Assembly: GCA_046483285.1 (NCBI GenBank)
Contig: JAWODN010000121.1
Span: 5,899 to 69,898 of the forward strand
DNA: 64,000 nt
Origin: Candidatus Aminicenantes bacterium
Lineage (GTDB): Bacteria > Acidobacteriota > Aminicenantia > Aminicenantales > Aminicenantaceae
Direction of reading: 5' to 3'
Shown: piece by piece, positions 34,940 to 56,966 of the stretch
How positions within the stretch are numbered: position 1 is the stretch's first letter
Layout: the number at the start of each line of letters is the position of its first letter
Made by a program: the position numbers and the translations under genes
The notes under the pieces: model-generated
What the model was told of the DNA's origin: nothing
Database searches by the model: none
What the model saw: the letters and a program-made list of their open reading frames with translations, nothing else

Positions 34940-35746
34940 ATGTCGGTGCTAGAAGCGAAAAACCTAAAAAAATCCTTCGATCAGCGGATGGTGGTCAAAG
35001 GCGTGGACATTGAAGTCCAATCCGGCCGCATCACCAGCCTTTTGGGCCGCAACGGTGCCGGAAAAACCACAACCTTCAGAATGATCACCGGCTTGACCCG
35101 GCCGGATGCAGGCGCGGTTTTATTGAACGGAGATGATATTTCAGGGCTCTCCACTCCCCAGCGGGCTGACCGTGGGATCATATATCTTCCCCAGGAAAAT
35201 TCTGTTTTTCTTAAGGCATCCGTCGAAGAAAACTTGAAGCTGATCCTGGAAATAAAAAAACCGGATATGGCTGACAAAATCGATTTCATCCATAAGCTCT
35301 TGGAAGAAATGGGCCTGGCGGAACTCAAAGGCCAAAAGGCCTATAGTCTATCAGGAGGAGAACGGAGACGGCTGGAAATAAGCCGTTCCCTTATCCTGGA
35401 CCCTCATTTTCTGCTTCTGGATGAGCCTTTTACCGGCATCGACCCCTTGACGATCGCTGAACTGCAGAAAATTTTATTGCGCCTTAAAAAACGGGGAATC
35501 GGCATCCTGGTTTCCGACCATAACGTGAGAGACACACTGGACATCACCGGCCGGGGATATATCATCGATGAAGGGTCTATTTTAGTCGAGGGCACTCCGG
35601 AGGAAATCGCTTCCGATCACAAGGCGAGAAAAAAATTCCTGGGAATGGATTTTTCCCTTGGAAAAAAGAAAAGCGTTCACTCCTCTTTCGGGAATATAAA
35701 ATCCCCCAAGGTCTCCCTAAGAAAAACCAAAAACAAGCTGAAGTAA
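34940..35746 (+). CDS. lptB: ABC ATP-binding protein, LptB-like
   Basis: 268 aa. Walker A LLGRNGAGKTT. IYLPQENSVFLKASVEENL is typical of LptB. LSGGERRRLEISRSL signature. LLLDEPF Walker B. Confidence 0.65.
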   Translation: MSVLEAKNLKKSFDQRMVVKGVDIEVQSGRITSLLGRNGAGKTTTFRMITGLTRPDAGAVLLNGDDISGLSTPQRADRGIIYLPQENSVFLKASVEENLKLILEIKKPDMADKIDFIHKLLEEMGLAELKGQKAYSLSGGERRRLEISRSLILDPHFLLLDEPFTGIDPLTIAELQKILLRLKKRGIGILVSDHNVRDTLDITGRGYIIDEGSILVEGTPEEIASDHKARKKFLGMDFSLGKKKSVHSSFGNIKSPKVSLRKTKNKLK

Positions 35747-36849
35747 ATCACTGTCAAAATCACAAAAAATCCGGCCGCCGGCAGGAGGGCCTTAGCTATC
35801 AGGCTGAACACCGGATTTCCGGTTAAATACGCCGCTATTCCGAGGGAAACCAGCCACAGTCCCGCAATCAACACAACATCGAAAAGGCGGGATTTCAACC
35901 ACCGGGAAGGCTTGAGAAAAGACAGCATTCCGAATCCTTTGCTCCGGGACTCTTCCTGTTCCGTCCCGAAAAGCATCCCCTGGTCATGACCGGTTAAAGC
36001 GGGGGTGTCATCAATGTCAATTTCGGATGTTTCTCTATCGAATTCCTCGAAAGCCCCGGTATCTTCCTCTTCTTCTTCCTCAGGAATTTCCCGCTCTTCT
36101 TCGGGTTCCAGCCGGACGGCCTCTTCGGTTGTTTTTACTTTGGTTTCTTGTTCCTGATCATCCGGCTCCTTATCTGCGTCTCTCATCTTTTCCGCCCAAG
36201 GAGGCAGGTCTTCTTCTGCGGCTTTTGTATCCTTTTTAATTTTTCGCCGCTCTTTTTTTAATGAGTCCAAAAACTGCTCGATCTCTTCTTTTTCCTTATC
36301 CGCAGGGTCCACCATGTCTTCCAAATCCCGGGTTTTCAGGTCTTCTTCCTCCCCTTCCATATCTTCCTCCGGGAATAGCCAATCCACGCTCCCTGAAGAA
36401 GGCGGAGCGGCCCGGGAATCCCCCTCGTCTTTATCGTCTTCTTCAGAAGGAGGGGGGGATTCAAAGGAAGTTGTTTCGAATGGTGTGTCAGAAGAAGGCG
36501 GGGTGGATGACACGTCGCCGCCAGGCTCAGGTTCCTCCTCCTCCGGTTCCGCCGGTTCGGGTTCCTCCGGCAAATCCTCTTTCAATGCCGCAGCGGATTC
36601 TTCTGATTCCGGGGACTCTTCCTCTTTCAGGTCCGGATCATCCATGTCCTCAGGTGGAGCCGCCTGCTGGTCATGCCGGGAGGATTTATGGACTTCTTCT
36701 TCCTCCTCTTCAACAACTCTTTCTCCCGGAATTTCTTCTTCAATATCCTCATCTTCAGGGAAAATAAGCTTGGTCCCGCAATTTGAACAGAATTCAGAGT
36801 CTTCTTCAATAAAAGCTTTGCAATAAGGACACTTTTTTATGGCCACCAC
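35677..36849 (-). CDS. zinc-ribbon protein with long acidic disordered region and C-terminal TM helices (hypothetical)
   Basis: 390 aa. N-terminus CPYCKAFIEEDSEFCSNCGTKL. About 250 aa of E/D/P-rich low complexity. C-terminal helices VVLIAGLWLVSLGIAAYL and FFVILTVIYFSLFLVFL. The 3' end overlaps the lptB end by about 70 nt, so the true stop or start is uncertain. Confidence 0.35.
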   Translation of the reverse strand: MVAIKKCPYCKAFIEEDSEFCSNCGTKLIFPEDEDIEEEIPGERVVEEEEEEVHKSSRHDQQAAPPEDMDDPDLKEEESPESEESAAALKEDLPEEPEPAEPEEEEPEPGGDVSSTPPSSDTPFETTSFESPPPSEEDDKDEGDSRAAPPSSGSVDWLFPEEDMEGEEEDLKTRDLEDMVDPADKEKEEIEQFLDSLKKERRKIKKDTKAAEEDLPPWAEKMRDADKEPDDQEQETKVKTTEEAVRLEPEEEREIPEEEEEEDTGAFEEFDRETSEIDIDDTPALTGHDQGMLFGTEQEESRSKGFGMLSFLKPSRWLKSRLFDVVLIAGLWLVSLGIAAYLTGNPVFSLIAKALLPAAGFFVILTVIYFSLFLVFLRETLGDFIFPKEE

Positions 36850-40677: not shown

Positions 40678-41520
40678 CTAATCCCGGCCGGAGGGCATCT
40701 GGCGTTTTTTGACTATGCGGTAGGTCAACGGACTCGGCATAAATCTCAAAGCGAATCGAACGATTTTATTGTTGAATCCCGGAACGCACACCGCCTTTTT
40801 TTTCCGGGCGCACTTCATTGATATTTTCACCACCTCTTCGGCATCCATGGCTTTCATGATCCCCTTGCTTTTATATATCCTCTCCTCATCCAAACCCATG
40901 CGCTGATGGAATTCAGTGCGGGTTATTCCGGGACAGAGCGCTTGGACATAGACTCCCGTGTCTTGAAGCTCCAGAAAAAGCGATTCAGAAAAAAGTTTCA
41001 CCATGGTTTTCGAAGCCGCGTAAACCGCATTCAGCGGATAGGGGGTGAAAGCAGCGGTTGATGAAACATTGATGATCATTCCATCGCCGGCGGTGATCAT
41101 CTGCGGAAGCGCAGCTTGAGTTAAACGCATAACCGCCAATTCGTGCACATAAAGCATATCTTCATATGCGGAAAAATCTCCCCGGTCGAAATAACATTGC
41201 GTCCCGAATCCGGCGTTGTTGACCAGTATTTTCAAATCCTTCTTTTTTTGAAGTTTTCCGGCCAGCTCTTCGATCTCTTCTCTCTTAGAAAGATCTCTTG
41301 TTTCCGTTTCGGCATTAATCTCATAATCCCGGCTCAACCGGCGGGCCATAGATTCAAGCTTGGTCCTGTTGCGTCCTGTCAGAATCAAATGATATCCCTG
41401 TTCAGCGAACTCCCGTCCGAAAGCTTCGCCGATTCCGCTGGTGGCTCCTGTGATGCAGGCCCATTGGCCAGCATTGGACTCCATGTCGATTTCTCCTTTC
41501 ATAAAGGAAATGAACCGCAC
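40678..41520 (-). CDS. classical short-chain dehydrogenase/reductase
   Basis: 280 aa. Cofactor motif ITGATSGIGEAF. NNAG. Catalytic YAASK. Confidence 0.8.
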   Translation of the reverse strand: MRFISFMKGEIDMESNAGQWACITGATSGIGEAFGREFAEQGYHLILTGRNRTKLESMARRLSRDYEINAETETRDLSKREEIEELAGKLQKKKDLKILVNNAGFGTQCYFDRGDFSAYEDMLYVHELAVMRLTQAALPQMITAGDGMIINVSSTAAFTPYPLNAVYAASKTMVKLFSESLFLELQDTGVYVQALCPGITRTEFHQRMGLDEERIYKSKGIMKAMDAEEVVKISMKCARKKKAVCVPGFNNKIVRFALRFMPSPLTYRIVKKRQMPSGRD

Positions 41521-42641: not shown

Positions 42642-43934
42642 TTATTCCGGACGCCAATCCTTCATGCTTTCAAAAACGTCTTGAAGAATGGCCACACAAC
42701 GGTCCATGTGTTCCTTGGTGTGGGCGGCGGAAACGGAAAGTCTCAGGCGGGTTTTATTTTTGGAAACCGCAGGATAGGTCACAACGCCGCTATACAATCC
42801 CTTTTGTTGGATCCGGCGGCTGATTTCGCGCAACCGAAGATCGCTTCCCGCCATGACCGGGATCACCTGGGATTTTGTGCTGCCGATATCCAACCCGGCT
42901 TCCTTCAAACGGGTATGCATATAGCGGGTATTGTCCCACAGCCTTTCCCGGTTGGAGGGGTCTTTTTGGAAAAGGTCCAGGGCTTTCAATATGCCGACCG
43001 CTGTATGCGGCGCCATGGCGCAGGAAAAAACATAGGAACGGGCGAACATTCTCAAAAAAGTCATCAGTTTCTTTTCCCCGGCTGCGTACCCCCCGATGGC
43101 ACCGAAGGACTTGCTGAAAGTTCCGATGGCGATATCCACCTGATCTTCCAATCCGTAATGTTCGGCCACGCCTCCCCCTTTTTTTCCAAAGACCAGAGAC
43201 GCATGAGCTTCATCCACTAATATTTTAGCGTTATATTTTTGACAAACAGGAACGATCTCAGGCAGATTGGCCAGATCGCCGTCCATGCTGTAAACTCCTT
43301 CCACACAGACGATAACTCTCTTGGCCTGGAGGCTTTTCAGGACTTTATCAAGATGGCGGGGATTGTTATGAGAAAACACCTTAATCTCCGCGCCCGAGAG
43401 CCTCACTCCGTCATAGATGGAAGCATGGGAGAGAATATCCAAAACGGCGATATCACCCGGCTTGAGCAGGCTGGAAAGAATACCGACATTGGCCCCGTAG
43501 CCGGTGGAGAAAACAATCGCCGCATCTTTGTTTTTAATATCCGCTATCCCGGCCTCCAACTCCAGAAGGGGCTGGGAATATCCGCTCAACAAAGGGGCGG
43601 ATACAGCGCCCGTTCCGAATTTTTTCACAGCGTCCTGAACAGCCCGAATGACTTCCGGATGAAATGAATACCCGAGGTAGTTGTAAGAACAAAAATTGAG
43701 AAACCGGCGGGTGCGGCCGGCATTGTTGTCATAAACTTCAAATTCCGGTTTGGGTCCTGATATCATGGGCTGGGCATAAATCATGTACTGCTTCCGCCTG
43801 GCATCCGCGACATATTCCCAAAAATAATCAGCGACCTCAAATAAATCTTCCCCCCGGAATTCAGCAAAATCGACCATGGTGTGATGATCGCAGTTTACTT
43901 TTTTCTCCTTAAGATCCTTGGGCTGCAGTGTCAT
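42642..43934 (-). CDS. alpha-oxoamine synthase family PLP enzyme (serine palmitoyltransferase / 2-amino-3-ketobutyrate CoA ligase-like)
   Basis: 430 aa. Substrate-binding motif FCSYNYLGY. GVYSMDGDLANLPEIV. DEAHASLVFGKKGGG. PLP lysine in GTFSKSFGAIGG. Confidence 0.8.
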   Translation of the reverse strand: MTLQPKDLKEKKVNCDHHTMVDFAEFRGEDLFEVADYFWEYVADARRKQYMIYAQPMISGPKPEFEVYDNNAGRTRRFLNFCSYNYLGYSFHPEVIRAVQDAVKKFGTGAVSAPLLSGYSQPLLELEAGIADIKNKDAAIVFSTGYGANVGILSSLLKPGDIAVLDILSHASIYDGVRLSGAEIKVFSHNNPRHLDKVLKSLQAKRVIVCVEGVYSMDGDLANLPEIVPVCQKYNAKILVDEAHASLVFGKKGGGVAEHYGLEDQVDIAIGTFSKSFGAIGGYAAGEKKLMTFLRMFARSYVFSCAMAPHTAVGILKALDLFQKDPSNRERLWDNTRYMHTRLKEAGLDIGSTKSQVIPVMAGSDLRLREISRRIQQKGLYSGVVTYPAVSKNKTRLRLSVSAAHTKEHMDRCVAILQDVFESMKDWRPE

Positions 43935-44007: not shown

Positions 44008-47000
44008 CTATATTTGAAGAGGGTCTTCCGCCAGGATACGGTCGAAAGTCTGGAGAAGCACGTCCGCGTTTTCTTCATTGAAAACCAGAGGCGGCTTGAT
44101 TTTGATCACGTTGCGGTCCGGTCCGTCCGTGCTGACAAGAATTCCTTCCTCCCTCATTCTCTCAGCCGCGTAGACAGCCTGGGCGGATGCGGGCTTGAAC
44201 GTCTCCCGTTCCTGAACCAGTTCCACTCCGATAAAAAGTCCCCTTCCCCGGACGTCTCCGATCAACGGATATTTTTTCTTCAAGCGTTCCAGCCCGGCCA
44301 TTATCCTGCTTCCGGTCAGCTGTGCATTTTCCTGAAGATTCTCCTGTTCAATGACGTCCAGAACCGCCATGCCGGCGGCGCAGGCCACGGGACTTCCGCC
44401 ATATGTGTTAAAGTATTCCATGCCCCCGGCGAACTTTTCCGCGATGCGGGGAGTGGTCACAACAGCTGCCAGGGGAAAACCATTGCCCATGGGCTTGCCC
44501 AGAGTGACGATATCCGGAATCACATTCTGCGTTTCAAAACCCCAAAAACAGCTCCCCGGCCTTCCGAACCCAACCTGGACTTCATCCGCAATGCAAACCC
44601 CGCCGGCCTTCCTGATGATCCGGTAGGCTTCCTCCAGATAACCGGGCGGAAACACAATCTGGCCTCCGCAGCCCGGAAGCGATTCCGAAATAAAAGCAGC
44701 CAGCCCCCTACCCCGCTCCTGAATCCTTTCGACGGCGTCCCGGACATGAACGGCGTATTTTTTCCCGGCCTCACTGTCGCCGTACCGGTAAGGCCCGCGG
44801 AAAAGATCGGGCATAACCACGGTTTGAGTATGAGGGGGTTTTCCCCGCCCCCCCGGGCCGTTGAATTTATAAGAGCTGATATCGATCAAAGAACCCAAGT
44901 TCCCATGGTAAGCTCCCTCCTCCGCAACGACATCCTGTCCCCCGCTGAAGCAGCGTGCCATTCGAAGGGCCAGGTCGTTGGCCTCACTTCCTGAATTGAC
45001 AATGGTGCACACCTGAAGGCCGCCGGGAAGCCGTTCCGCCAGCCGGCGGGCGTAGCGGACCACATCATCGTGCAGGTAACGGGTGTTCGTATTCAGCACG
45101 CTCAATTGCTTATTTACGGCATCAACCACACGCGGGTGCTCATGCCCGACATGGGGAACATTATTGACGGCGTCCAGGAATGCCCGGCCAGTGTGATCGT
45201 AAAGAAAACATCCGCTGCCCCGGACGATTTTGAGCGGCTTCCTGTAGGAAACACTTAAAGCCCCGAGAAGGTATTTTTTCCGGAGACGCAATATTTCCGG
45301 AACCGTAAGGGAATCATCCTTGATCTCTTCCTCAGGGAGGCCGGCGATGAGATTCGGATCCGGGCACAGACTCAACCACACATCTCTCTCGTCCGCCCGG
45401 GCCACACCCGGGAAATCTCCCGTGCGGCCAAGCATATCCATGATCAATTGAAAATGAAGATGAGGGGCCCACCCCCTGTTCTCGGATGAATCCCCCATCC
45501 ATCCAAAAATCTCCCCTTTTTTTATCACCTTCCCCGGATACACGCCTTCCAGAGAAGAAGCGCTGAGATGTCCGTAAAGAGTATAAAACTCAATGTCTTC
45601 GCCGCCGGCCCGGTGTTTGAGGATTATGGTGGGCCCATAATCCAGCTCACCGCGGTTATTCCGGAAGCTATGCACCTCACCGTCTAACGGCGCTTTCACC
45701 GGGCTTCCCGGCGGCATAAACACGTCTAAACCCAAATGAACGGTGCGGTCCTGAAAAAGATCACTGGTATACACCAGCCGGGCTTCGTCATAACGGCCGA
45801 TCCCGATGGTTTCCCCGGCTTTTTCCCGCCACGCCTTCATTTTCCGGTGCATGAGTTCCGCCGGTGTTAAACCTTTTTCATTTCCCAGCCAGCGGCTTCC
45901 TATGCTGAGATCAAACACAGTCCGTCCGGCTTGGTTCAAGGGAGGAACGGTGATCGGGCCGATTTCCGAACTCCGCAACTTCAGCCATTCCTCAATTCGG
46001 CTTGTGCGGGGGCAGGGGGGATAGCCGCAGGCGGCGCGGAAGGAATACCATGCGAAATCCGGAGATATCCGCTGCATTCGCTCCAGGAGCTTCCATACCG
46101 GATTCTCAGAAACAGACAGATAGGTGTTTCCGGGGTGAAGGGTTTTTTGGTAAGCGGAAATACAGACGCTCATCAAAAGCCTCAGCTGGATCAGGTTATA
46201 AAGGACCTTCAATTCTTTTTCCTGAAACGGCCGGCGGGAATGATATCCCGCCGCCGCCCGGCAAGCCGCCGGCAATGGATTCCGTTTGTCCAGCATCACA
46301 TAAGCGCAGACCACCGCCGCCTCCGCCAGTTTATACGTATAAATCATATCCCCGAAATCAATGATCCCCGCGACCCGCATATCTCCGAAGGATCCGGGCT
46401 CCCGGGAAGGAGGAGAAATGATAATATTGTGATCGTTACCGTCATTATGAATGAGCCCCATGGCCAGCCCGGCCTTTTCCAACCCGCCCTCCGACCGGAT
46501 CCGGCGGCTGAATTGTTCCACCAGGCCGGCTTTTTTCTTGTCCGTGATATGCCTTTTGAATTCATCGATCACAGAAAAGGCGTTTTTTAAATCCCATATC
46601 AATTCTCTGCGTCCGGCCGGATGAGAAAAATCCGCCAGAGACCTTTCCATGTCCCCGAAAAACTCCCCCACCCGAAAAAGCAGGTCCGAAGAGTGGGGGT
46701 TGACCTCCGCCAAAACTTTCCCGGGGAGATAACTCACCAGCCTGACAAAATGAACCCGGCCTTCTTGATTTTCCAACGTTTCCATATCCCGGCCGGATAC
46801 AGCCGGAATAAGCCGCGGACAGGAGCCGGCGGTCATTTTTTTATTCAAATGTTCCATCGCCTTGTTCTGAAGATCCAGGATGTCTTGTTTTTCTTCCGGA
46901 TTGGCGATCTTCAGCACAAATTCGCCTTTGTTTTCTTCCTTCAGATAAAAATTCTGATCCCGCTCTGACGGAAGCGGCTCCGCCTCCGCTTCTAATCCGT

Positions 47001-47115
47001 ATAAACACCGGGCGGCGGCCCCGGCCTCTTCCCGGCTGAATGAAGGCGCGCTTCCGGCTGTGGATTTAAAAACTCCGTTCTTCATGTGATTTCTCCTTAT
47101 CTTTATATTTTTCAC
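44008..47115 (-). CDS. three-domain fusion: APH-type (hydroxylysine/homoserine kinase II-like) phosphotransferase + M23 peptidase domain + class-III aminotransferase-fold PLP domain
   Basis: 1035 aa. N-terminal [12 protein letters not shown]...VLKIAN, catalytic loop [14 protein letters not shown] and IIDFGDM (APH fold). Middle domain has [23 protein letters not shown] (HxxxD) and YGHLS...[10 protein letters not shown] (HxH), i.e. intact M23 motifs. C-terminal domain has [11 protein letters not shown] and [11 protein letters not shown] (class-III aminotransferase fold, the family of ethanolamine-phosphate phospho-lyase). Confidence 0.75.
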
Positions 47116-47429: not shown

Positions 47430-48965
47430 ATGCCCGGCGAAGCAGTGTTTTATTCAGTGCTGAAAGCGGATGCTTACGGCCACGGGCTCCGCGAGATCGC
47501 CCTGGCATTAACCCAGGCCGGCTGCCGCCGCTTTGCTGTGGAGTCCCCGCAGGAAGGAATCCGGCTGCGAAACGAAGGGATCTCCTCCGAAATCCTGCTC
47601 ATGAATCCTATTCCTGATTGGATGGCGGAAATATGCGTTCAGAATGACTTAAGCGTCTCGGTCATTCACCGCTCCATTCTCACCCCCTTGGAAGAAGCCG
47701 CCCGGTCCATGGATAAAACCTGCCGGATTCATCTCAACGTCAATGTCGGACTTCACCGCATGGGTATCGCGCGGTCCAGGCTGCTGCAGGTGGCCCGGAA
47801 AGCCGAAAGAATGCCTCACTTGATTCTGCAGGGGATATTCGGGCAGCCCCGGACTCCGGATACCGCTCCACAGGCCTACCGGATGCTCAAAGACAGCTAT
47901 CATCAGTTAATCCAGAAGAACATCCGGCCCCTCAGCCTTCATTTCGCCAACAGCGCCGCTTTCTTGACATGTCCCGAAACCGCCGCGGAAGGAGCCCGGC
48001 TGGGCATTCTTCTATACGGGGTGCTTCCCATGGAAATCTACAAAAAGAAATCATCGCCGCCTCCTTTGAAACCGGCCATGAGCCTGGATACGGAATTGGT
48101 GCAGATCCGCGATCTCCCCCGCGGCAGCCGGTTTGGTTACCATTCTCACAAAAAAACAGATAGGGATATGCGGATCGGGGTGATCCCGCTGGGCTATTAT
48201 CACGGTCTCGACCGGAAAATGGCCCAAGGAGGATACGCACTGCTGCATGGGCGTAAAGCCTTTTTCCAAGGAAGCATTTCCATGAACGCCTCCACTCTCG
48301 ACATAACCGGAATCCCCGGCGGGAAAATCGGAGACCGGGTCACCGTCATCGGAAAGCAGGGGAATCAAACCATAGACATCAATCAACTGGCAGTCCAGGC
48401 CGGGACTATAGCCGCTGAACTCATGATGCGGCTGGGAGGAAATTTAGTCAAAACATACAGGCTGTCGGAAGGGGCTCCCTCCTATGGAATGCATATTGAC
48501 AAAGACCGCTTCGACGTCGATATCCTGTATTTACGCAGCGCCAAATCCCTTCCGGATTGGCTCAGCCTCTATGACATCGTTGGTTTTATCCAGCAGCAGA
48601 TGGGAGAATTCAGCGAACCGAGAGATGCTGTGGATTACGCCATCGGCTATGCGCTGTCCGCAGTGCGGCCGGGAAAAGGATTCATTTTTCTCTGCGTATC
48701 CGGGAAACGTATCATAGGCGCTTCCGTGTGCGTTCAAACCGAAACCCACGGTTTTATCCCGAAAAACATTCTTTTGTATCTATGTGTTCACCCCGAATTC
48801 CGGGGGAAAGGATTGGGAAAAGGACTGCTGCGGGATACCCTGACCGCCGGGGGCGGCGACTGTAAAGTCCACATTCAACCCGGCAACCCCGCCGCCGGTT
48901 TTTTTGAAAAAATGGGATTTGAAAAAAAATATCTTGAATACCGTTTTTCAAAAGGAGACACTTGA
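47430..48965 (+). CDS. alr: alanine racemase fused to a C-terminal GNAT acetyltransferase domain; the conserved N-terminus extends upstream of the first canonical start
   Basis: 511 aa. PLP-lysine motif VLKADAYGHG. C-terminal GNAT motif A HPEFRGKGLGKGLL. The in-frame upstream sequence back to the stop at 47289-47291 encodes LNIDLSAVQSNFQYLRSR, which aligns to the Alr N-terminus, but contains no ATG, GTG or TTG. Confidence 0.75.
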   Translation: MPGEAVFYSVLKADAYGHGLREIALALTQAGCRRFAVESPQEGIRLRNEGISSEILLMNPIPDWMAEICVQNDLSVSVIHRSILTPLEEAARSMDKTCRIHLNVNVGLHRMGIARSRLLQVARKAERMPHLILQGIFGQPRTPDTAPQAYRMLKDSYHQLIQKNIRPLSLHFANSAAFLTCPETAAEGARLGILLYGVLPMEIYKKKSSPPPLKPAMSLDTELVQIRDLPRGSRFGYHSHKKTDRDMRIGVIPLGYYHGLDRKMAQGGYALLHGRKAFFQGSISMNASTLDITGIPGGKIGDRVTVIGKQGNQTIDINQLAVQAGTIAAELMMRLGGNLVKTYRLSEGAPSYGMHIDKDRFDVDILYLRSAKSLPDWLSLYDIVGFIQQQMGEFSEPRDAVDYAIGYALSAVRPGKGFIFLCVSGKRIIGASVCVQTETHGFIPKNILLYLCVHPEFRGKGLGKGLLRDTLTAGGGDCKVHIQPGNPAAGFFEKMGFEKKYLEYRFSKGDT

Positions 48966-48968
48966 ATC

Positions 48969-50036
48969 ATGAATAAACTCGAAAAGCAATATCAAAAAGA
49001 TAACTTAACCTGGGACCAATGTGCTGAAATTTACGAACGGCAAATCGTCGGAGGACACCCCGACATCGCCGCTTTTGAAAATTTTGAAGAAGATTTTTTA
49101 GATAAAATGCTGCGGTTTCTCGGGAAAAGCCAGAAGCGCCCCCTTAAATTAATGGATCTCGGGTGCGGATCCGGACGGCTCCATCTGCGATACGCCGCCA
49201 AGACTATGAAACCTTCCCGCAGCGAAAAAAACGAGGCTCTGCAAAAATTCCGGTATAACCGCCCATTTCTCGCCTATGACGACATCCTGGCTGAATCATT
49301 ATCCGAAGTCTGGGGAATTGATTTCTCCAAAAAAATGATCGAATTGGCCCGGAAAAAAATGAATGCGGCCGGTCTGGACAGAGGACTTTCCATAAAAACT
49401 CTTTTCAAGCAGGGATCCGCTTTCCAGCTGGAACCCCAGCCTAAACAATTTTTGCCGATTGCGGTCTGCCTGGTCAATTCCATCAGCGTGATGCAGGGTC
49501 CGGAAGGGGCGCAAAGTTTATTTAAAGCGATGCGGCGCGCCGTGGAACCGGCCGGCGGAATCGCCTTAATCGCCAATTATCAAAGTGAATTCGTTGAATC
49601 GCATGCTTTGGGTCAGTATGAATCGACTATGGACGTATCCGGCCAGCCTTGGTGGATGAAACCGGACACCTATGCCTCCGGCTATAAACTCATCCCCAAA
49701 AAATACAAACGTTCTTACTGCCGCAATCCCCGCCTGGCTGTGGATGTCTATGATGAAAAACAGCATCTGGTGGAAAAGGATTTTATCCTGGAAAGAGATC
49801 CGGAAAGAACCCGGCAGACCGTGGAAACCGGCCATATCCGCACACACACCAACTATCAATCCCATTGGTACAGTTATGCCCAGATGGAAGAATGGGCCCG
49901 TGAACATTGGGGAAAAAATATTTACCACTTTCCCACCGCAGATTTGGATATGATCAGGGCGGACGCGGCTCAGTTCACCATTCTGGATTCCGGAGATTGG
50001 CTTAAATCGCTTTTCCAGCGCTGGAAATTGACTTAA
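48969..50036 (+). CDS. class I SAM-dependent methyltransferase
   Basis: 355 aa. Motif I LMDLGCGSGRL. Confidence 0.5.
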   Translation: MNKLEKQYQKDNLTWDQCAEIYERQIVGGHPDIAAFENFEEDFLDKMLRFLGKSQKRPLKLMDLGCGSGRLHLRYAAKTMKPSRSEKNEALQKFRYNRPFLAYDDILAESLSEVWGIDFSKKMIELARKKMNAAGLDRGLSIKTLFKQGSAFQLEPQPKQFLPIAVCLVNSISVMQGPEGAQSLFKAMRRAVEPAGGIALIANYQSEFVESHALGQYESTMDVSGQPWWMKPDTYASGYKLIPKKYKRSYCRNPRLAVDVYDEKQHLVEKDFILERDPERTRQTVETGHIRTHTNYQSHWYSYAQMEEWAREHWGKNIYHFPTADLDMIRADAAQFTILDSGDWLKSLFQRWKLT

Positions 50037-51454
50037 TGCCCCATTCCTGGCTTCAATATCTTATCATCCTTCTGTATTTCATTTTCATCGTCGCTAAAGG
50101 TCTGCGCCGCTCCCGTGAGATAAAGGATACGGACGATTTTCTGGTCGCCGGGAGGCGGACCGGATGGTTTATATTGATGTGCACCATGGGAGCCACCGTC
50201 CTGGGGGGCGGCGCGTCGATCGGTGCTATCGGCCGGACTTATGAGTGGGGAATCCTCATGCTGGTTATTTCGACGGGATGGTATCTCCACTTTATTATTT
50301 CCGGACTTTTTGTGGCTCCGTATTTCCGCAAAGCCAGGCTGTATACCGTGGCCGGTTATTTCGGCCATCGATATGGAGAAAAAAGCCGGTTTTTGGCTTT
50401 TCTTCTTTCTCTCTTTTTTTCCGTCGGTATCCTGGGCGCTCAAATGGTGGCCTTTGGAAAAATCATCACCACCATGATACCGGAAATGTCCTATCTGGCC
50501 GCGGTCCTGGTTGGCGGAGGCATCGTGATTCTTTACAGCACCGCCGGGGGATTGCTGGCTGTGATTCACACGGATGTTTATCAGTTCATTATTCTTGTCG
50601 CCGGATTTTTTTTCACCGTCCTGCTTTGCGCTCCTGATCTTATCCGGGCCGGGGAAGCTGTCTCCCAAGCCGTGCCGGATTCGTTTTTCCAAATCGACGG
50701 CGGGATGGGGTGGCTTTTTCTGATTACCACTTTTTTGGCTTTTTTTCTGGGAGAAACGTTTGCCCCGGGATACGCCACCCGCTACTGCATCGGTAAAAAT
50801 GTCAAGGAAACCAAAAAAGGAATCGTCGGCGCCGGGGTCTTCCTCGCCTTCACTTTCCCGGTCATCCTCTTTTTTATCGCTCTCTACAGCCGGCTTCACT
50901 TTCCTGCAATAGATCCGGAAATGGCCCTTCCCAAAACGATTATCCAATTGAATAATCCAGTCATCGGAGGGATTATTATTGCGGCCCTGATGTGCGCAGT
51001 GATGTCATCTGCGGATTCCATCCTCAATTCCGCCACCGCCATATTTGTCAAGGACCTCTATGAAAAATACCTTTCCAATTCCCGGATGATGCAGAAAAGG
51101 GGATTGATTATCGCCCGCTTCAGCTCGGTGGGGCTGGGATTGCTGGGCATTTCCATGGCTCTGGCGCTTCCGAATGTCATCGACCTTCTTTTATTGACCT
51201 ATAACCTCTGGGCACCCGGAATCATCCTCCCTGTGCTGATTGGTGTTTTCTCCAGACGCCGTTCACAGCAGCATAACCTCTTGATCTTCAGCACGATGCT
51301 GCTGTCAACAACCGGGACGATTTTCTATATGGGCACAGCCTACGCTGAGGCGGTCCAGCCGAGTGTGTTCGGGGTGGTGATCTCTTGTGTCATCTATTTT
51401 GCCGGCCGGGTGCTTATGAAAATCATCCGGGCGGACCAGTCTTCCCCTGAATGA
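50036..51454 (+). CDS. sodium:solute symporter family transporter
   Basis: 472 aa, about 13 TM helices. N-terminal region FLVAGRRTGWFILMCTMGATVLGGGASIGAIG is typical of SSF. Confidence 0.75.
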   Translation: MPHSWLQYLIILLYFIFIVAKGLRRSREIKDTDDFLVAGRRTGWFILMCTMGATVLGGGASIGAIGRTYEWGILMLVISTGWYLHFIISGLFVAPYFRKARLYTVAGYFGHRYGEKSRFLAFLLSLFFSVGILGAQMVAFGKIITTMIPEMSYLAAVLVGGGIVILYSTAGGLLAVIHTDVYQFIILVAGFFFTVLLCAPDLIRAGEAVSQAVPDSFFQIDGGMGWLFLITTFLAFFLGETFAPGYATRYCIGKNVKETKKGIVGAGVFLAFTFPVILFFIALYSRLHFPAIDPEMALPKTIIQLNNPVIGGIIIAALMCAVMSSADSILNSATAIFVKDLYEKYLSNSRMMQKRGLIIARFSSVGLGLLGISMALALPNVIDLLLLTYNLWAPGIILPVLIGVFSRRRSQQHNLLIFSTMLLSTTGTIFYMGTAYAEAVQPSVFGVVISCVIYFAGRVLMKIIRADQSSPE

Positions 51455-52832
51455 ATTCTTTCCGGCGCTTGGCATTCAACCGGCAGATAATTCCATCCAG
51501 TTTCCGGCGCATCCGTGCGGCTGTTTTTTGATGCCGGGCCAGTAAATTGACGGCTTCTCCGGGATCTTCATCAAGGTCATATAACTCTTCAATGCCTTTA
51601 TGAACTTTTTCGCAGCATTGGCACCATCCTGTATTATCGGGTGCGAATATATATTTAAAGCGGGACTCGCGGAGACTGATTTTCCTCTGGAAATAGGATT
51701 CTTCTGAAAAAACAAAATCCCGGATTCTTTTTTTCTCCCCCCGCATCAGCGGCAGCAGGCTGGATCCGTCAAATCCGAGATGTTCCGGGGGGATTTTCAG
51801 CCAATCGCAGAGAGTCGGGACCAAATCAATATGCTGGATAAATCCTTTTATCCTTCGGCCCGGCTTGAATCGGTCCGGAAAATGAAAAATCAGAGGGCAG
51901 TGGGTGGTGACATCATAAAGTCCATGGTGGTCGAAAAATATGTCATGTTCGATCAAGCTTTCACCGTGATTCGAGGTGATGATCAGCCAAGTGTTATTGA
52001 GCAGGTCTTCTTGTTCAAGAAAACTCATCAAACGGCCGATATGGAAATCCACATACGTTACCGCCCCCTTATAGGCATCCTGCAAATGATCTTCTAAATC
52101 AGTAGCCTTGTTTTCTCTCCGGGGACGAAAGGCGCGAGGGGCATGATAAGGAGTATGGGTGTCCCAGTAATGAAGGAAAAGAAAAAAAGGGGCTCCATTT
52201 CTTTTCCCGGCCAAATCCATGCCGAGGTCCGTTACAAATCCGGCGTCTTGAACACGGGCCTGTTTAAAGGCAAACCGAAAAGTTTTGGAAGTCCCGGACA
52301 GCCCTTTCCACACCGAACGCAAAGAAAAATTTCTTTTTTTTGAATAAAGCCGCAAAAGGCTGAAATTGGAGATCAAGTGTTTGATGTGGATAGAGGGAAG
52401 CTTGAATATATTATGAAAAACTTCAGCCGGAAGGGACTTTTCTTTTTCATACCCGTAGTCATCAAACCCCCGGGTGAACCAGCGGCCCATCCCATCCACC
52501 CCCATGGTCTGATAACCATTCTCTTTCAGTATTTGAGGGAGTGTTCTGACCCCCATGCCGTCGAATGTTTCCTGGTCCCGGGGTTCGGCCTTATCACCAT
52601 GATGAATGATTCCATGGGTGCGGGGGTATCTTCCGGTTAGGATTGACGTCTGGCTTTGATCGGTGGTATTCCAAGTTGAAAAAACATCTTCGAATAAAAT
52701 TCCGTTCCCGGCCGCCTTGTCGATATTGGGGCTTGCTCCTGCTTCACATCCGTAACAGCCTAAATTTCTGGCCCTAAGGGCATCAACGACAATTAAAACA
52801 ATATTGGGATGATTCGCTGCTTCAGATGTCAT
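51423..52832 (-). CDS. sulfatase-like hydrolase/transferase (alkaline phosphatase superfamily)
   Basis: 469 aa. N-terminus [34 protein letters not shown] resembles the sulfatase signature but has Ser/Thr in place of the Cys/Pro. Confidence 0.6.
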
Positions 52833-54447
52833 CGATAAAAGATTTTAAAATCCGTCCCCGGGCGGGTCCCCGGAGCTTTCTCAGCGCTTTGGCTTCGATC
52901 TGCCGAATCCGCTCCCGCGTGACTTTAAACTGCTGGCCCACTTCTTCCAGAGTGTGTTCGTTTCCATCCCCCAGTCCAAAACGCAGCCTCAATACCTTGG
53001 CTTCTCTCTCCGTAACGGATTTCAAAGCTTCCTCGATTTTTTCCTGTAAAGTCCGGTTGACCACAGCATCAGGAGGAGAAGGCAGGATTGTATCTTCAAT
53101 GAAATCCGCCAGCTGGCTGTCCTCATCCTCCCCGATAGGGGTCTCCAGGGATATGGGCGCTTGGGAGAGTTTTAATATTTTCCGCACTTTCCCCACCGGC
53201 AAATTCATATGCCTGGCCAGCTCTTCACTGCTGGGTTCCCTGCCGTATTCCTGCACGAATTTTTGCGATTGTTTGGTCAATTTATTGATGGTTTCGATCA
53301 TATGGACAGGAATCCGGATGGTCCTCGCCTGGTCGCAGACAGCCCGGGTGATGGCCTGACGTATCCACCAGGTCGCATAAGTGGAAAACTTATATCCCCG
53401 CTGGTATTCGAACTTATTTACTGCTTTAATAAGGCCCGTGTTTCCCTCTTGGATCAAATCCAGAAAATGCAGCCCCCGGTTGACATATTTTTTGGCGATG
53501 GATACCACCAGCCTTAAATTGGCGGCCACCAATTCATCACGGGCCTGATCACCTATGGCTTTTTCCAGTTTGATCCGGTGCATGAGACGGCGCAGACGCT
53601 TGGATGAAAAACCGGTTTCTTTTTGAATACATCTCAAATCCCGTTCAATATCCGATATCATGTTCTTGAGCAGTGAGCGCGGCCGCTTCCTTACGGTTTT
53701 CGCCATCTTCTTTTTTAGTTGACGGCCTTCATTCTCCAGCAAATCCATTTCTTGACACCGCTGGTATAATTTTTCAAGAACCCGGCTGATATATTCCTCT
53801 TTTGGCTGCAGCTCCCGTAGGTGCTGATTTATTCGAACCAGCGGCCTGAATACATAACCCGCGGGCTTTTTCTTTTTCCGCCGCTGCTTGCGGCGCATCT
53901 CAAAAACCTGGAATTGGTCTTGAATTTCGAGAATTTTATTTCTTATTAAGGCGCATTTTTCTATGAAATCCGAATCCAGATTGCCGTTGTCATAATCAAA
54001 AATCCGCACTATGACCCTTGGATCTGTCTCGCTTTCTTTAAGCAGGCTGTCCAGCTCCGCCATGAAAAAATTAGTCAGCGACAGAAGCTTGAGGATGTTG
54101 TTATCACTTCTTTCGATTTGCCGGGCCAGAGCCATTTCCCCTTTACGGGTTAAAAGAGAAATGCTCCCCATTTCCTTAAGGTAAAGTTTGACCGGATCCG
54201 TCGTCCGTCCGATATTTTCAAGGAAAGGCTTTTTTAAATGACTGGGTTTGCGGGGTATTTCCCGGAAACGGTCGATTATACGTATATTATTGCCATTCAG
54301 GATTTGAAGGAAATGATTGAATTCTTGTCCTGAATCCGGTTCGTCTCCGAATAGATCATAAACTTCATCTCCGATTATGTATCCTTCAATCAATCCTTTG
54401 GAGATGATTTCTCCCCTTTTTTTTTCTTTTTGGGTGTTATCGGCCAT
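52822..54447 (-). CDS. rpoD: RNA polymerase sigma factor RpoD (sigma-70)
   Basis: 541 aa. Region 2 [40 protein letters not shown]. Region 4 [27 protein letters not shown]. Acidic region 1. Confidence 0.9.
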
Positions 54448-54755: not shown

Positions 54756-56966
54756 GTGAATAAACAAAAAAAGAAAGCAGGGCGGATCATTGTCGTCTCC
54801 AACCGCCTGCCGGTGACAGTGGCGAAAAGAGGCGGCCGTCTGATTTTCCAGCAAAGCCAGGGGGGATTGGCCACCGGGCTCCGCTCTCTCCAAACTGAAA
54901 AAAAGGCTTTTTTTATCGGATGGCCGGGGTATGATCCTGTCAACAAGGAAGAACGCGAACACATGACCCGGCGTTTACGGGATGAATTCAATTGCCATCC
55001 TGTGTATCTGACTCAGCATGAAATCAACAAATATTATTACGGATTTTCCAACCGGACTCTATGGCCTCTTTTCCATTATTTTTCCTCCTACAGCACTTTC
55101 GATGAACCGGAATGGAAGGTTTACAAAAAAGTCAATCAGAAATTTTCGCAGGAAGTTTTGAGGGTCGCGGATGAGAATGATATCTTCTGGGTTCATGATT
55201 ATCACTTGATGCTTCTTCCCCAGTTGATCCGGATTATGCTTCCCGAATCGTCTATCGGATTTTTTCTCCATATCCCTTTTCCCTCATCAGAAATCTTCCG
55301 CATCCTGCCCTGGCGCACGGATATCTTGGAAGGCTTAATGGGAGCGGATCTGCTGGGTTTTCATACCTATGAATACGCCCGCCACTTTTTGAGCAGCGTT
55401 CTGCGGCTGCTGGGGTATGAGCATGAATTCGGTTCCGTATCCGTAAACGGCCGGATTGTCCGGGTGGACAATTTCCCCATGGGAATCGACATCAAACACA
55501 ACACAAAATTGCTTTCTGACCCGGAAGTCAAAAAAGAAATCTCTCAATGCCGCCATAGATTGGGAACGAAAAACAATAAAATTATTTTATCCGTAGACCG
55601 CCTGGATTACACCAAAGGCATTCCCCAGCGCCTGGCGGGTTTTGAAGCGTTCCTCGCCAAAAACAAGGCCTGGCATAATAAAATCACTTACCTGATGCTA
55701 TGCGTTCCTTCCCGCACTAAAGTGGATCAATACGCTCTCCTGAAGGAAGAGGTGGACCGGATGGTAGGAAGAATCAACGGGCGTTTCGGAAGCGCCAGCT
55801 GGCAGCCGGTCCATTATCTGTACCGGTCGCTTCCTTTTAAAAAACTTCTCCCCCTCTATGCCGTCGGCGACATCGCCCTGGTCACTCCGGTACGGGACGG
55901 CATGAACCTGGTGGCCAAGGAATATGTGGCCGCTAAAACCGACAACAAGGGAGTTTTGATTCTGAGCGGAACCGCCGGCGCCTCGGATGAATTGGGAGAG
56001 GCCCTGACTGTGAACGTGCACAGCGAAAATGAAATCGCCTCCGCCATCACTCGAGCTTTGACAATGCCGGAAAAAGAAAAGGCCCAGCGGATAAAAAACA
56101 TGCGTAACCGGATCATGGAATACGACATTCACCGCTGGACCGAGTCATTTGTATCCAGTATTGAAAAAAGCCGCGATATACGAAAGCGGCTGGAATTCAG
56201 AAAGCTGAGCCGGAAATGGCAGGATGAACTTTTAAAAGATTACAGCGGATCTAAACAGCGCCTGTTGCTTCTTGATTATGACGGCACCCTGATTTCTTTC
56301 ACCGGCCGGCCGGAAGAAGCCAGGCCGGACACCGAACTGAAGCGTCTTCTTCTGGCCCTCGCCAAGGACAAAAAAAACCACCTGGTTATAGTCAGCGGAC
56401 GAGACCGGGATTCCCTGGAGCAATGGCTCGGTAAGATTCCCGGATCTCTGGTCGCCGAACACGGCGCCTGGGTGAAATCCAAGGGCCGCGAAAAATGGAA
56501 AAGTTATGATTCTGAATCGGAGGACTGGAAAAACCGTATCCGGCCTATTTTAAAAAACTATGAATTCCGGGTCCCCGGATCGTTTGTGGAAGAAAAAGAG
56601 ACGGCTCTGGCTTGGCATTACCGTAAAGCCAATCCGGATCTGGGGGAAATCCGGTCCTGCGAATTGTTCGATAACTTGAATGAATTTCTAGCCAACACCA
56701 GCTTGCAGCTTTTCCATGGAAACAAAGTGATCGAAGTCAGGGTAGGCGGCGTCAATAAGAGTATTGCGGCGGCCGCTTTTCTTGAAAAAAACGACTGGGA
56801 TTTCATCCTGGCCGTTGGAGACGACTGGACCGACGAAGACATTTTTAAGATTCTTCCTAAATCCGCGTATTCGATTAAAATCGGTTACGGCCCCACCCAA
56901 GCCAAATTTTACTTGGAGTCCCCTCACTCCACCCGGAAGCTTCTCCGGGAATTGAGCAAAGCCTGA
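54756..56966 (+). CDS. otsA: bifunctional trehalose-6-phosphate synthase (GT20) / trehalose-6-phosphate phosphatase fusion
   Basis: 736 aa. N-terminal GT20 region IIVVSNRLPVTV...GGLATGL. C-terminal HAD phosphatase motif LLLLDYDGTLISF and downstream HAD motifs. Confidence 0.85.
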   Translation: MNKQKKKAGRIIVVSNRLPVTVAKRGGRLIFQQSQGGLATGLRSLQTEKKAFFIGWPGYDPVNKEEREHMTRRLRDEFNCHPVYLTQHEINKYYYGFSNRTLWPLFHYFSSYSTFDEPEWKVYKKVNQKFSQEVLRVADENDIFWVHDYHLMLLPQLIRIMLPESSIGFFLHIPFPSSEIFRILPWRTDILEGLMGADLLGFHTYEYARHFLSSVLRLLGYEHEFGSVSVNGRIVRVDNFPMGIDIKHNTKLLSDPEVKKEISQCRHRLGTKNNKIILSVDRLDYTKGIPQRLAGFEAFLAKNKAWHNKITYLMLCVPSRTKVDQYALLKEEVDRMVGRINGRFGSASWQPVHYLYRSLPFKKLLPLYAVGDIALVTPVRDGMNLVAKEYVAAKTDNKGVLILSGTAGASDELGEALTVNVHSENEIASAITRALTMPEKEKAQRIKNMRNRIMEYDIHRWTESFVSSIEKSRDIRKRLEFRKLSRKWQDELLKDYSGSKQRLLLLDYDGTLISFTGRPEEARPDTELKRLLLALAKDKKNHLVIVSGRDRDSLEQWLGKIPGSLVAEHGAWVKSKGREKWKSYDSESEDWKNRIRPILKNYEFRVPGSFVEEKETALAWHYRKANPDLGEIRSCELFDNLNEFLANTSLQLFHGNKVIEVRVGGVNKSIAAAAFLEKNDWDFILAVGDDWTDEDIFKILPKSAYSIKIGYGPTQAKFYLESPHSTRKLLRELSKA

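Follow-up and report, generated by a model that had tools for sequence, protein, structure and literature searches.

Enzymes of the M23 family are known for hydrolysing the cell wall after secretion. The other systems considered here join a small-molecule kinase to an enzyme dependent on pyridoxal 5'-phosphate (PLP): the logic of the kinase HYKK acting together with a phospho-lyase goes back to Veiga-da-Cunha et al. 2012 (J Biol Chem 287:7246), as that work is cited in a passage of PMC8154272, and, according to PMC6620236, the Rhodococcus/Mycobacterium microcompartment (RMM/Aut) cluster combines an APH kinase and a class-III aminotransferase homologue with a dehydrogenase for amino-propanol. 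In a 64,000-nucleotide stretch of DNA from a Candidatus Aminicenantes bacterium (contig JAWODN010000121.1, positions 5,899 to 69,898; the whole of this stretch is called the window below), a single minus-strand gene encodes a kinase domain, an M23 module and a class-III PLP domain, in this order. A sequence-only reading had described the product as a 1035-amino-acid (aa) fusion and had interpreted its two ends as a hydroxylysine-kinase-type enzyme and a phospho-lyase acting in succession, while the apparently competent M23 domain in the middle of a cytoplasmic enzyme was left as a puzzle. The analysis reported here argues for the succession of kinase and lyase, and points to the middle module being an entire protein family that was inserted between the two enzymes with its catalytic site complete. 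The parts of the gene are listed here, residue numbers in this list and below being those of a 1025-aa protein unless the 1035-aa open reading frame (ORF) is stated.

44008..47085, minus strand: whole gene, 1025 codons plus the stop codon at 44008-44010; the mechanical ORF reaches GTG 47115
47093..47098, minus strand (read 47098-47093): Shine-Dalgarno-like AAGGAG, 7 nt 5' of ATG 47085, read from the sequence
46024..47085, minus strand: APH-fold small-molecule kinase domain, residues 1-354 (Pfam APH, PF01636, E 1.1e-21)
45331..45993, minus strand: M23 module, residues ~365-585; an alpha/beta sub-domain at its N-terminal end precedes the M23 core, which is followed by a CPDPNL tail
45445..45741, minus strand: M23 catalytic core, residues 449-547
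44011..45297, minus strand: class-III PLP domain of predicted phospho-lyase type, residues 597-1025, with PLP Lys864 and Asp834

The ORF runs without interruption from GTG 47115 to the stop at 44008, 1035 codons in all, and the plus-strand frame across 44008-47115 holds many stops. The true start is more likely to be ATG 47085, ten codons inside this mechanical ORF, than GTG 47115, because AAGGAG stands 7 nt upstream of the ATG and because the resulting length equals that of a 100% identical NCBI protein (P0001) from a Candidatus Aminicenantes metagenome-assembled genome (MAG), which is exactly 1025 aa long; the frame of 1035 codons reported before is thus real, but the protein is probably the 1025-aa one. 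Mis-assembly or a frameshift, which might have fused three separate genes, is ruled out by the single ORF, the identical database protein, an end-to-end match to the NCBIfam model PRK06148 and at least 595 collinear relatives. The kinase, M23 and class-III motifs quoted by the sequence-only reading are all present in the minus-strand translation, where SERDQNF lies at residue 40, HNDGNDHN at 213, IDFGD at 242, HLGLD at 450, YGHL at 504, PHLHF at 541, DEVQVG at 834 and TLGKPMGNG at 861. Domain boundaries and structure prediction, both of which had been proposed as checks, agree with this layout: in the 1035-aa ORF, Pfam places APH at residues 45-297 (E 1.1e-21), Peptidase_M23 at 459-557 (E 2.8e-16) and Aminotran_3 (PF00202) at 627-1028 (E 2.5e-76), and an AlphaFold2 model of the protein, made with 70 homologues, has a mean predicted local distance difference test score (pLDDT) of 88.6 and a predicted template modelling score (pTM) of 0.89, values that indicate a compact multi-domain protein with confident domain packing. 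Neither a signal peptide nor a membrane segment was found at the N-terminus of the translation, and the product is most likely a soluble, cytoplasmic three-module enzyme.

The C-terminal domain, in which a class-III fold had correctly been recognised, finds its closest counterparts of solved structure in two phospho-lyases whose activity is established by experiment. In a PDB sequence search, the best match is human ETNPPL (6tor; 461 bits, E 9e-137), followed by Arthrobacter aurescens A1RDF1 (5g4i; 334 bits, E 1.5e-98), whereas the next, dialkylglycine decarboxylase, reaches ~200 bits, and transaminases and racemases score lower. A Foldseek search with the model returned 6tor at 51% identity and a template modelling (TM) score of 0.94, and 5g4i at 40% identity; in the alignments, the stretches NNV(P/A)HVGH and NTN(T/S)R(Y/F)LH are common to our protein and 6tor, and largely to 5g4i as well. 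The domain does not reach the cut-off of any named transaminase model in NCBIfam. Both PLP residues are conserved among 227 full-length relatives, whose mean identity to the query is ~40-60% per domain: K864, the PLP-binding lysine, in 226 and D834, the aspartate for the pyridine nitrogen, in all. A PLP domain of phospho-lyase type, as had been proposed, is accordingly well supported as a prediction, the grouping being one by bit scores and structure. The grouping with GABA-AT or ornithine-AT that would have spoken against the sequence-only reading was not seen in these comparisons.

The APH signatures at the N-terminus belong to a kinase with an intact active site, consisting of the ATP-binding Lys59 (conserved in 223 of the 227 relatives), the catalytic Asp215 and Asn220 of HNDGNDHN (227 and 226) and the Mg-binding Asp243 of IDFGD (226). 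No close solved relative of this domain was found, and a profile built from 28 family kinase domains gave remote matches over the full length to amicoumacin kinase (6sui, E 4e-16) and to 6ef6 (E 4e-15), which we take to be the 1-amino-2-propanol kinase of M. smegmatis; the third match was homoserine kinase (2ppq, E 2e-11), and the NCBIfam homoserine kinase model yields 44 bits, far under its cut-off. Such matches place the domain, as far as profiles can tell, among small-molecule hydroxyl kinases. Its motifs presumably resemble those of animal hydroxylysine kinase. What holds of the hydroxylysine-kinase-type label is, then, the APH kinase with intact motifs, but hydroxylysine is only one of several candidate substrates.

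Kinase and lyase constitute a recurrent functional unit, given that they are found as a two-gene operon, as a two-domain fusion and within the three-domain proteins. In the plasmid collection, Pantoea sp. JZ2 has an unfused operon in which a 353-aa phosphotransferase precedes a 438-aa class-III protein with 5g4i (386 bits) and 6tor (345 bits) as its best PDB matches, and Pannonibacter phragmitetus encodes an 805-aa protein consisting of APH and Aminotran_3 with nothing between the domains. The latter, together with the PRK06148 proteins, bears out the statement that bacterial phospho-lyase homologues are fused to kinases of this type. Bacterial fusions of a 'bi- or tri-functional' kind reportedly served Veiga-da-Cunha and coworkers, in 2012, as a clue.

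Intact catalytic residues, the scores of the PLP domain and the recurrent pairing all support the kinase-then-phospho-lyase interpretation, and the protein is predicted, most likely, to phosphorylate an amino alcohol and then to split off phosphate and ammonia. In the first step, to judge from homology and from the intact active site, the APH-fold kinase would transfer a phosphate group from ATP to the hydroxyl of a small vicinal amino alcohol, for which ethanolamine, 1-aminopropan-2-ol, 5-hydroxylysine or a related compound are the candidates, the three named ones being the known precedents. In the second, the C-terminal domain would perform a 1,2-elimination on the O-phospho-amino alcohol and release phosphate, ammonia and the corresponding aldehyde or ketone, as its ~51% identity to human ethanolamine-phosphate phospho-lyase and its conserved PLP residues suggest. 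The two steps would make up a B12-independent, self-contained route by which amino alcohols could serve as a nitrogen, phosphorus-neutral or carbon source, and such a route fits a gene that stands alone, without conserved neighbours.

The M23 module has the full M23 fold by structural comparison, together with all zinc ligands and catalytic histidines of its family. The HLGLD and PHLHF motifs noted in the sequence-only reading are indeed intact: the zinc ligands of the HxxxD and HxH motifs are His450 and Asp454 (HLGLD) and His544, and the two catalytic histidines are His506 (YGHL) and His542 (PHLHF). All three ligands are present in 227 of the 227 full-length relatives, His506 in 225 and His542 in 226. 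The N-terminal sub-domain contributes its own conserved positions, with D392, E434 and R436 invariant, G430 and Y432 nearly so, and Y439 and R447 retained in at least 95% of relatives. Mean pairwise identity is 56% in the M23 core, compared to 42% in the kinase and 63% in the PLP domain, and 21% of the core columns are conserved at 95% or more. The characterised M23 members work outside the cytoplasm on peptidoglycan (or elastin), and here the module departs from them, since it is, by its sequence, an internal module of a leaderless protein. Taken together, these observations indicate that the site is complete and under selection in the PRK06148 clade.

The sister family PRK06149 (NF004800, named 'aminotransferase'), represented by a 976-aa paralogue from S. 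meliloti that scores 1609 bits, has a degenerate M23 module, in which H450 is replaced by Ala and H506 by Val, HxH is lost and several deletions have occurred, whereas the residues of the kinase and of the PLP domain are all in place. Although selection maintains the module in the PRK06148 clade, the core kinase-lyase chemistry can therefore dispense with it, given that kinase and lyase also occur without it and that the PRK06149 copy is degenerate.

The origin of the module is suggested by a family of small proteins. Over residues 406-583, the fusion is 44% identical to a 223-aa Vibrio tritonius protein, which itself matches positions 358-574 of the PRK06148 profile. A search with this protein retrieved thousands of matches, and the best 120 are all 203-248 aa long, have the M23 Pfam domain only and come from Vibrio, Photobacterium, Veronia, Dongshaea, Legionella, Fulvivirga, Hymenobacter and many metagenomes; the free-standing gene is complete in 76 of 80 metagenome loci, where it encodes 214-331 aa, nearly always 214-244 aa. 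These proteins share with the module the invariant residues G-x-Y-x-E-x-R, HxxxD, DYGP, YGHL, N..W..HxH and CPDP, and most are without a signal peptide, a few having one (Legionella P0367 and P0293). When 35 fused and 40 free-standing modules were placed in a neighbour-joining tree, the free-standing ones all formed one clade and 32 of the fused ones a second, with ~40% identity between the groups, which is consistent with a single old fusion event. Because the module is collinear with the free-standing family and has the same invariant residues, it appears to be an entire M23 protein of ~225 aa, inserted between kinase and lyase. The description of an M23 domain inside a cytoplasmic enzyme thus stands as regards its complete and conserved catalytic residues, but the module amounts to more than a motif-bearing linker.

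The surroundings of the free-standing genes are variable: among the neighbours in the 76 metagenome loci, no cluster of related proteins is present in more than 9 loci. Three species, Vibrio tritonius, Photobacterium damselae and Dongshaea marina, have a major facilitator superfamily (MFS) gene directly upstream, whose stop codon overlaps the beginning of the M23 reading frame (L087:5673-7579, L090:4770-6666 and L093:4784-6681), an arrangement suggestive of a two-gene operon. An AmpG-type muropeptide permease was considered for the MFS protein and rejected, NCBIfam showing only weak similarity to efflux proteins of the Tet/DHA type. At another locus (L094:6724-11993), genes for a sodium:solute symporter (SSF), a GNAT protein, an M20 amidohydrolase, an alanine racemase and an Orr-like racemase lie tail-to-tail with the free-standing M23 gene, as does an Alr and M20 pair at L154:6583-8900. 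These racemase, GNAT and M20 neighbours may link the M23 module to the metabolism of D-amino acids or N-acetyl-amino acids, or may be there by coincidence.

The fused form, for its part, belongs to an architecture that is already catalogued and widespread, occurring in hundreds of species. The protein scores 1213.5 bits against NCBIfam PRK06148 (NF004799, 'hypothetical protein'; cut-off 1128), with residues 21-1030 of the 1035-aa ORF aligned to profile positions 6-1010 of 1015; its NCBI label is only 'aminotransferase class III-fold PLP-dependent enzyme'. Among 5.8 billion clustered proteins, the best 120 relatives are all 1001-1079 aa long and share this set of three Pfam domains. At least 595 collinear relatives were confirmed in a scan that took one genome from each GTDB species, and 80 of their loci were kept for the counts given below on the genomic context of the fused gene; their hosts are Acidobacteriota, Gemmatimonadota, Desulfobacterota, Chloroflexota, Bacteroidota, Alpha- and Gammaproteobacteria, Aminicenantes, and Thor- and Promethearchaeota. 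A protein search of the plasmid collection added three-domain PRK06148 proteins from S. meliloti, Paracoccus and Phyllobacterium; the Paracoccus homologue and those of S. meliloti on pSymB and on the chromosome also score above the PRK06148 cut-off. In S. meliloti there are three paralogues, two of PRK06148 with an intact M23 module and one of PRK06149 with the degenerate module: a 1008-aa copy on pSymB within an operon of LacI, ABC-transporter and short-chain dehydrogenase/reductase (SDR) genes, a 1017-aa intact copy on the chromosome adjoining an Lrp regulator, and the 976-aa PRK06149 copy adjoining hutC (loci L084 for pSymB and L177, 5998-13180, of the chromosome record CP090106.1). The window gene is, then, largely an ordinary addition to a known family whose kinase-lyase logic is already published; our full-text literature searches returned nothing on the three-domain protein or its M23 domain.

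Full-length three-domain homologues with 47-49% identity are present in Asgard MAGs (Thorarchaeota and Promethearchaeota; loci L008, L015, L017 and L019). Combined with the ~51% identity between the PLP domain and human ETNPPL, this observation may bear on the origin of animal HYKK, PHYKPL and ETNPPL; gene transfer or binning is an alternative explanation.

Regarding the function of the middle module, the conserved catalytic residues and the existence of an autonomous sister family are the reasons to take it for an active zinc hydrolase. Under this scenario, the weakest of the three steps that we propose, a leaderless family of free-standing M23 zinc hydrolases would have been captured once between kinase and lyase, and the module would hydrolyse a small, soluble compound of amide or peptide-like nature that is connected with the pathway; our favoured guess, a weak one, is that an amino alcohol is thereby released from a conjugate before it is phosphorylated. 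We also offer, as a tentative suggestion whose chances are well short of even, that the module and its leaderless ~225-aa relatives represent an unrecognised class of cytoplasmic M23 zinc hydrolases that act on small soluble metabolites instead of the cell wall and that, in the fusion, provide a third coupled catalytic step. If so, the protein would be a three-step catabolic assembly line, freeing, for example, an amino alcohol from an N-acyl, peptidyl or other conjugate. The explanation as a whole, with a kinase that hands its product to a phospho-lyase and an M23 module that is an active zinc hydrolase, we regard as probable.

Several findings weigh against this explanation. The matches of the kinase profile do not fix a substrate, and no assay of the exact three-domain family was found in the literature. 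Genomic context is of no help, given that the neighbours are not conserved: in the 80 loci, none of the neighbours of the window gene recurs in BLAST comparisons except for an SDR of similar sequence in 5; when 861 flanking ORFs were clustered all against all, no family extended beyond 7 loci; and among 123 immediate neighbours scanned with Pfam, no family is shared by more than 3. Only relatives of 65-70% identity have the same surroundings as the window gene, and the free-standing M23 relatives, in their 76 metagenome loci, never adjoin kinase or lyase genes. Finally, PRK06149 has kept the domain and lost H450, H506 and HxH, which makes a structural role possible. This last point leads to a rival explanation of the module, namely, that it is a structural or regulatory zinc-binding spacer without hydrolytic turnover, which would fix the geometry of kinase and lyase, mediate oligomerisation or bind the phosphorylated intermediate or an effector at its zinc site, leaving the kinase-lyase function unchanged. 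The S. meliloti paralogue, with the domain in place, the catalytic histidines gone and the kinase and PLP residues intact, is what a spacer would look like; the tight packing of the domains that the pTM of the model indicates, and the presence of the non-catalytic LytM domains of EnvC and SpoIIQ among the closest folds, speak for it as well. However, LytM domains known to be non-catalytic no longer have their zinc ligands, which here are invariant in relatives from many phyla; the module is better conserved than the kinase; the Pannonibacter fusion manages without any spacer; and an independent protein with the same invariant residues implies that the module has a function of its own. On balance, a spacer appears possible but rather unlikely. 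Far less probable, to the point that we give it hardly any credence, is that the PLP domain is a genuine aminotransferase, racemase or decarboxylase, with the kinase acting on a different molecule, in which case there would be no kinase-then-lyase pair at all. The name given by NCBI goes no further than the fold, and most characterised members of the class-III fold are transaminases, according to the passage of PMC8154272 that deals with them. Yet, the gap in bit scores between the two phospho-lyases and the best other PDB match, the closeness to ETNPPL in identity and fold, the failure to reach the cut-off of any named transaminase model and the recurrent linkage to an APH kinase, both as adjoining genes and as fusions, run counter to this view; a true transaminase was ruled out by bit scores and structure comparison.

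The remaining alternative involves the genes that follow the fusion gene on the same strand, where an alpha-oxoamine synthase, a methyltransferase and an SDR succeed each other, in this order, between 43934 and 40678:

42642-43934, minus strand: alpha-oxoamine synthase, 430 aa, with an N-terminal extension of ~75 aa; similar to BioF, Kbl and serine palmitoyltransferase and below all specific NCBIfam cut-offs
between synthase and SDR, minus strand: methyltransferase, 300 aa, with a lipoprotein-like leader; its C-terminal domain resembles an archaeal protein-lysine methyltransferase
40678-41520, minus strand: SDR, 280 aa

These genes and the fusion could form a local aminoketone/amino-alcohol pathway, in which the synthase would turn an amino acid and an acyl-CoA into an alpha-aminoketone, the SDR would reduce this ketone to an amino alcohol, and the fusion would phosphorylate the latter and eliminate phosphate and ammonia, in the manner of an aminoacetone/1-aminopropan-2-ol route or a sphingoid-base-like one. 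The gaps are short, the 73-nt gap after the fusion gene contains no terminator-like site, and the same order is seen in a 69%-identical relative (L083); on S. meliloti pSymB, the homologue follows an SDR gene at a distance of 14 nt, in an operon that encodes an amino-acid ABC transporter, and the trio of dehydrogenase, APH kinase and class-III homologue in the RMM/Aut cluster (PMC6620236) provides a parallel. Yet, the synthase is near the fusion gene in none of the 80 loci from other lineages (0/80), an SDR like that of the window is found in 5/80, which is not above expectation for so common a family, and the synthase itself falls under every specific NCBIfam cut-off. The order in L083, moreover, includes a housekeeping gene, that of the tryptophanyl-tRNA synthetase (TrpRS), and may be plain synteny, which is the simplest reading of the block shared with close relatives because TrpRS is part of that block. 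We thus find a dedicated local pathway improbable, and keep to the self-contained kinase and phospho-lyase as the explanation of the gene.

Other neighbours complete the picture. In cultured alphaproteobacteria, the homologues lie within catabolic islands with amino-acid-type ABC transporters and regulators. In the window, a divergent operon stands upstream of the fusion gene, resembles in its content the set of SSF, GNAT and racemase genes at L094, and is conserved in two relatives of 65-69% identity (L081 and L082):

47430-51454, plus strand: divergent upstream operon of three genes, for a 511-aa fusion of alanine racemase and GNAT, a 355-aa methyltransferase and a 472-aa SSF sodium:solute symporter

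Farther away, a 390-aa ORF (35677-36849, minus strand) has a zinc-ribbon-like N-terminus (CPYC...CSNC), a very long low-complexity middle rich in Glu, Asp and Pro, and hydrophobic C-terminal segments. By their translations, an RpoD-like sigma factor of 541 aa (52822-54447, minus strand) and a fused trehalose-6-phosphate synthase/phosphatase-like protein of 736 aa (54756-56966, plus strand) look like ordinary housekeeping context.

The implications extend beyond this locus. The kinase and phospho-lyase offer a B12-independent way to draw on ethanolamine and other amino alcohols for nitrogen and carbon, and the three-domain form, present in at least several hundred species, including soil, sediment and marine bacteria as well as Asgard archaea, may represent a common route. 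A complete M23 site in a cytoplasmic metabolic enzyme, along with free-standing leaderless sisters, points to a new activity for the fold. The role of the module can be tested directly, thanks to four sets of proteins that are available for comparison, in which it is intact, degenerate, absent or free-standing, and the three paralogues of S. meliloti constitute a ready genetic system.

When the protein is set against the closest known systems, the resemblance to the animal enzymes is the most telling. The C-terminal domain is ~51% identical, over its full length, to ETNPPL/AGXT2L1 (6TOR), with a TM score of 0.94 and the same PLP lysine and aspartate, a closeness that is stated for ETNPPL only, there being no PHYKPL structure among the PDB sequence matches; and the succession of a kinase and a PLP-dependent elimination of phosphate and ammonia is that of HYKK/AGPHD1 and PHYKPL/AGXT2L2. 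Animal HYKK, PHYKPL and ETNPPL, however, are separate polypeptides without an M23 domain. Among prokaryotic proteins, PRK06148 is the family whose cut-off the window protein passes over its whole length, whereas PRK06149 differs by its degenerate M23 module. The PLP domain is of the same kind as A. aurescens A1RDF1 (5G4I/5G4J; 334 bits, 40% identity), and the Pantoea operon and the 805-aa Pannonibacter fusion have homologous kinase and lyase parts, but in all three the M23 module is wholly missing. The RMM/Aut system likewise brings together an APH-fold kinase and a class-III homologue, but as separate proteins of a microcompartment locus, whereas the window gene has neither shell genes nor a conserved dehydrogenase adjoining it; the similarity to the 6EF6 kinase, with an E value of 4e-15 for the family kinase profile over the full length, is remote. 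The M23/LytM enzymes, such as LytM, lysostaphin, MepM/ShyA and the Csd proteins, are secreted or periplasmic peptidoglycan hydrolases, whereas the module described here is without a signal peptide, resides inside an ATP- and PLP-dependent cytoplasmic enzyme, and is set apart by a family-specific N-terminal sub-domain (D392, E434 and R436; Y439 and R447) and by its CPDPNL tail.

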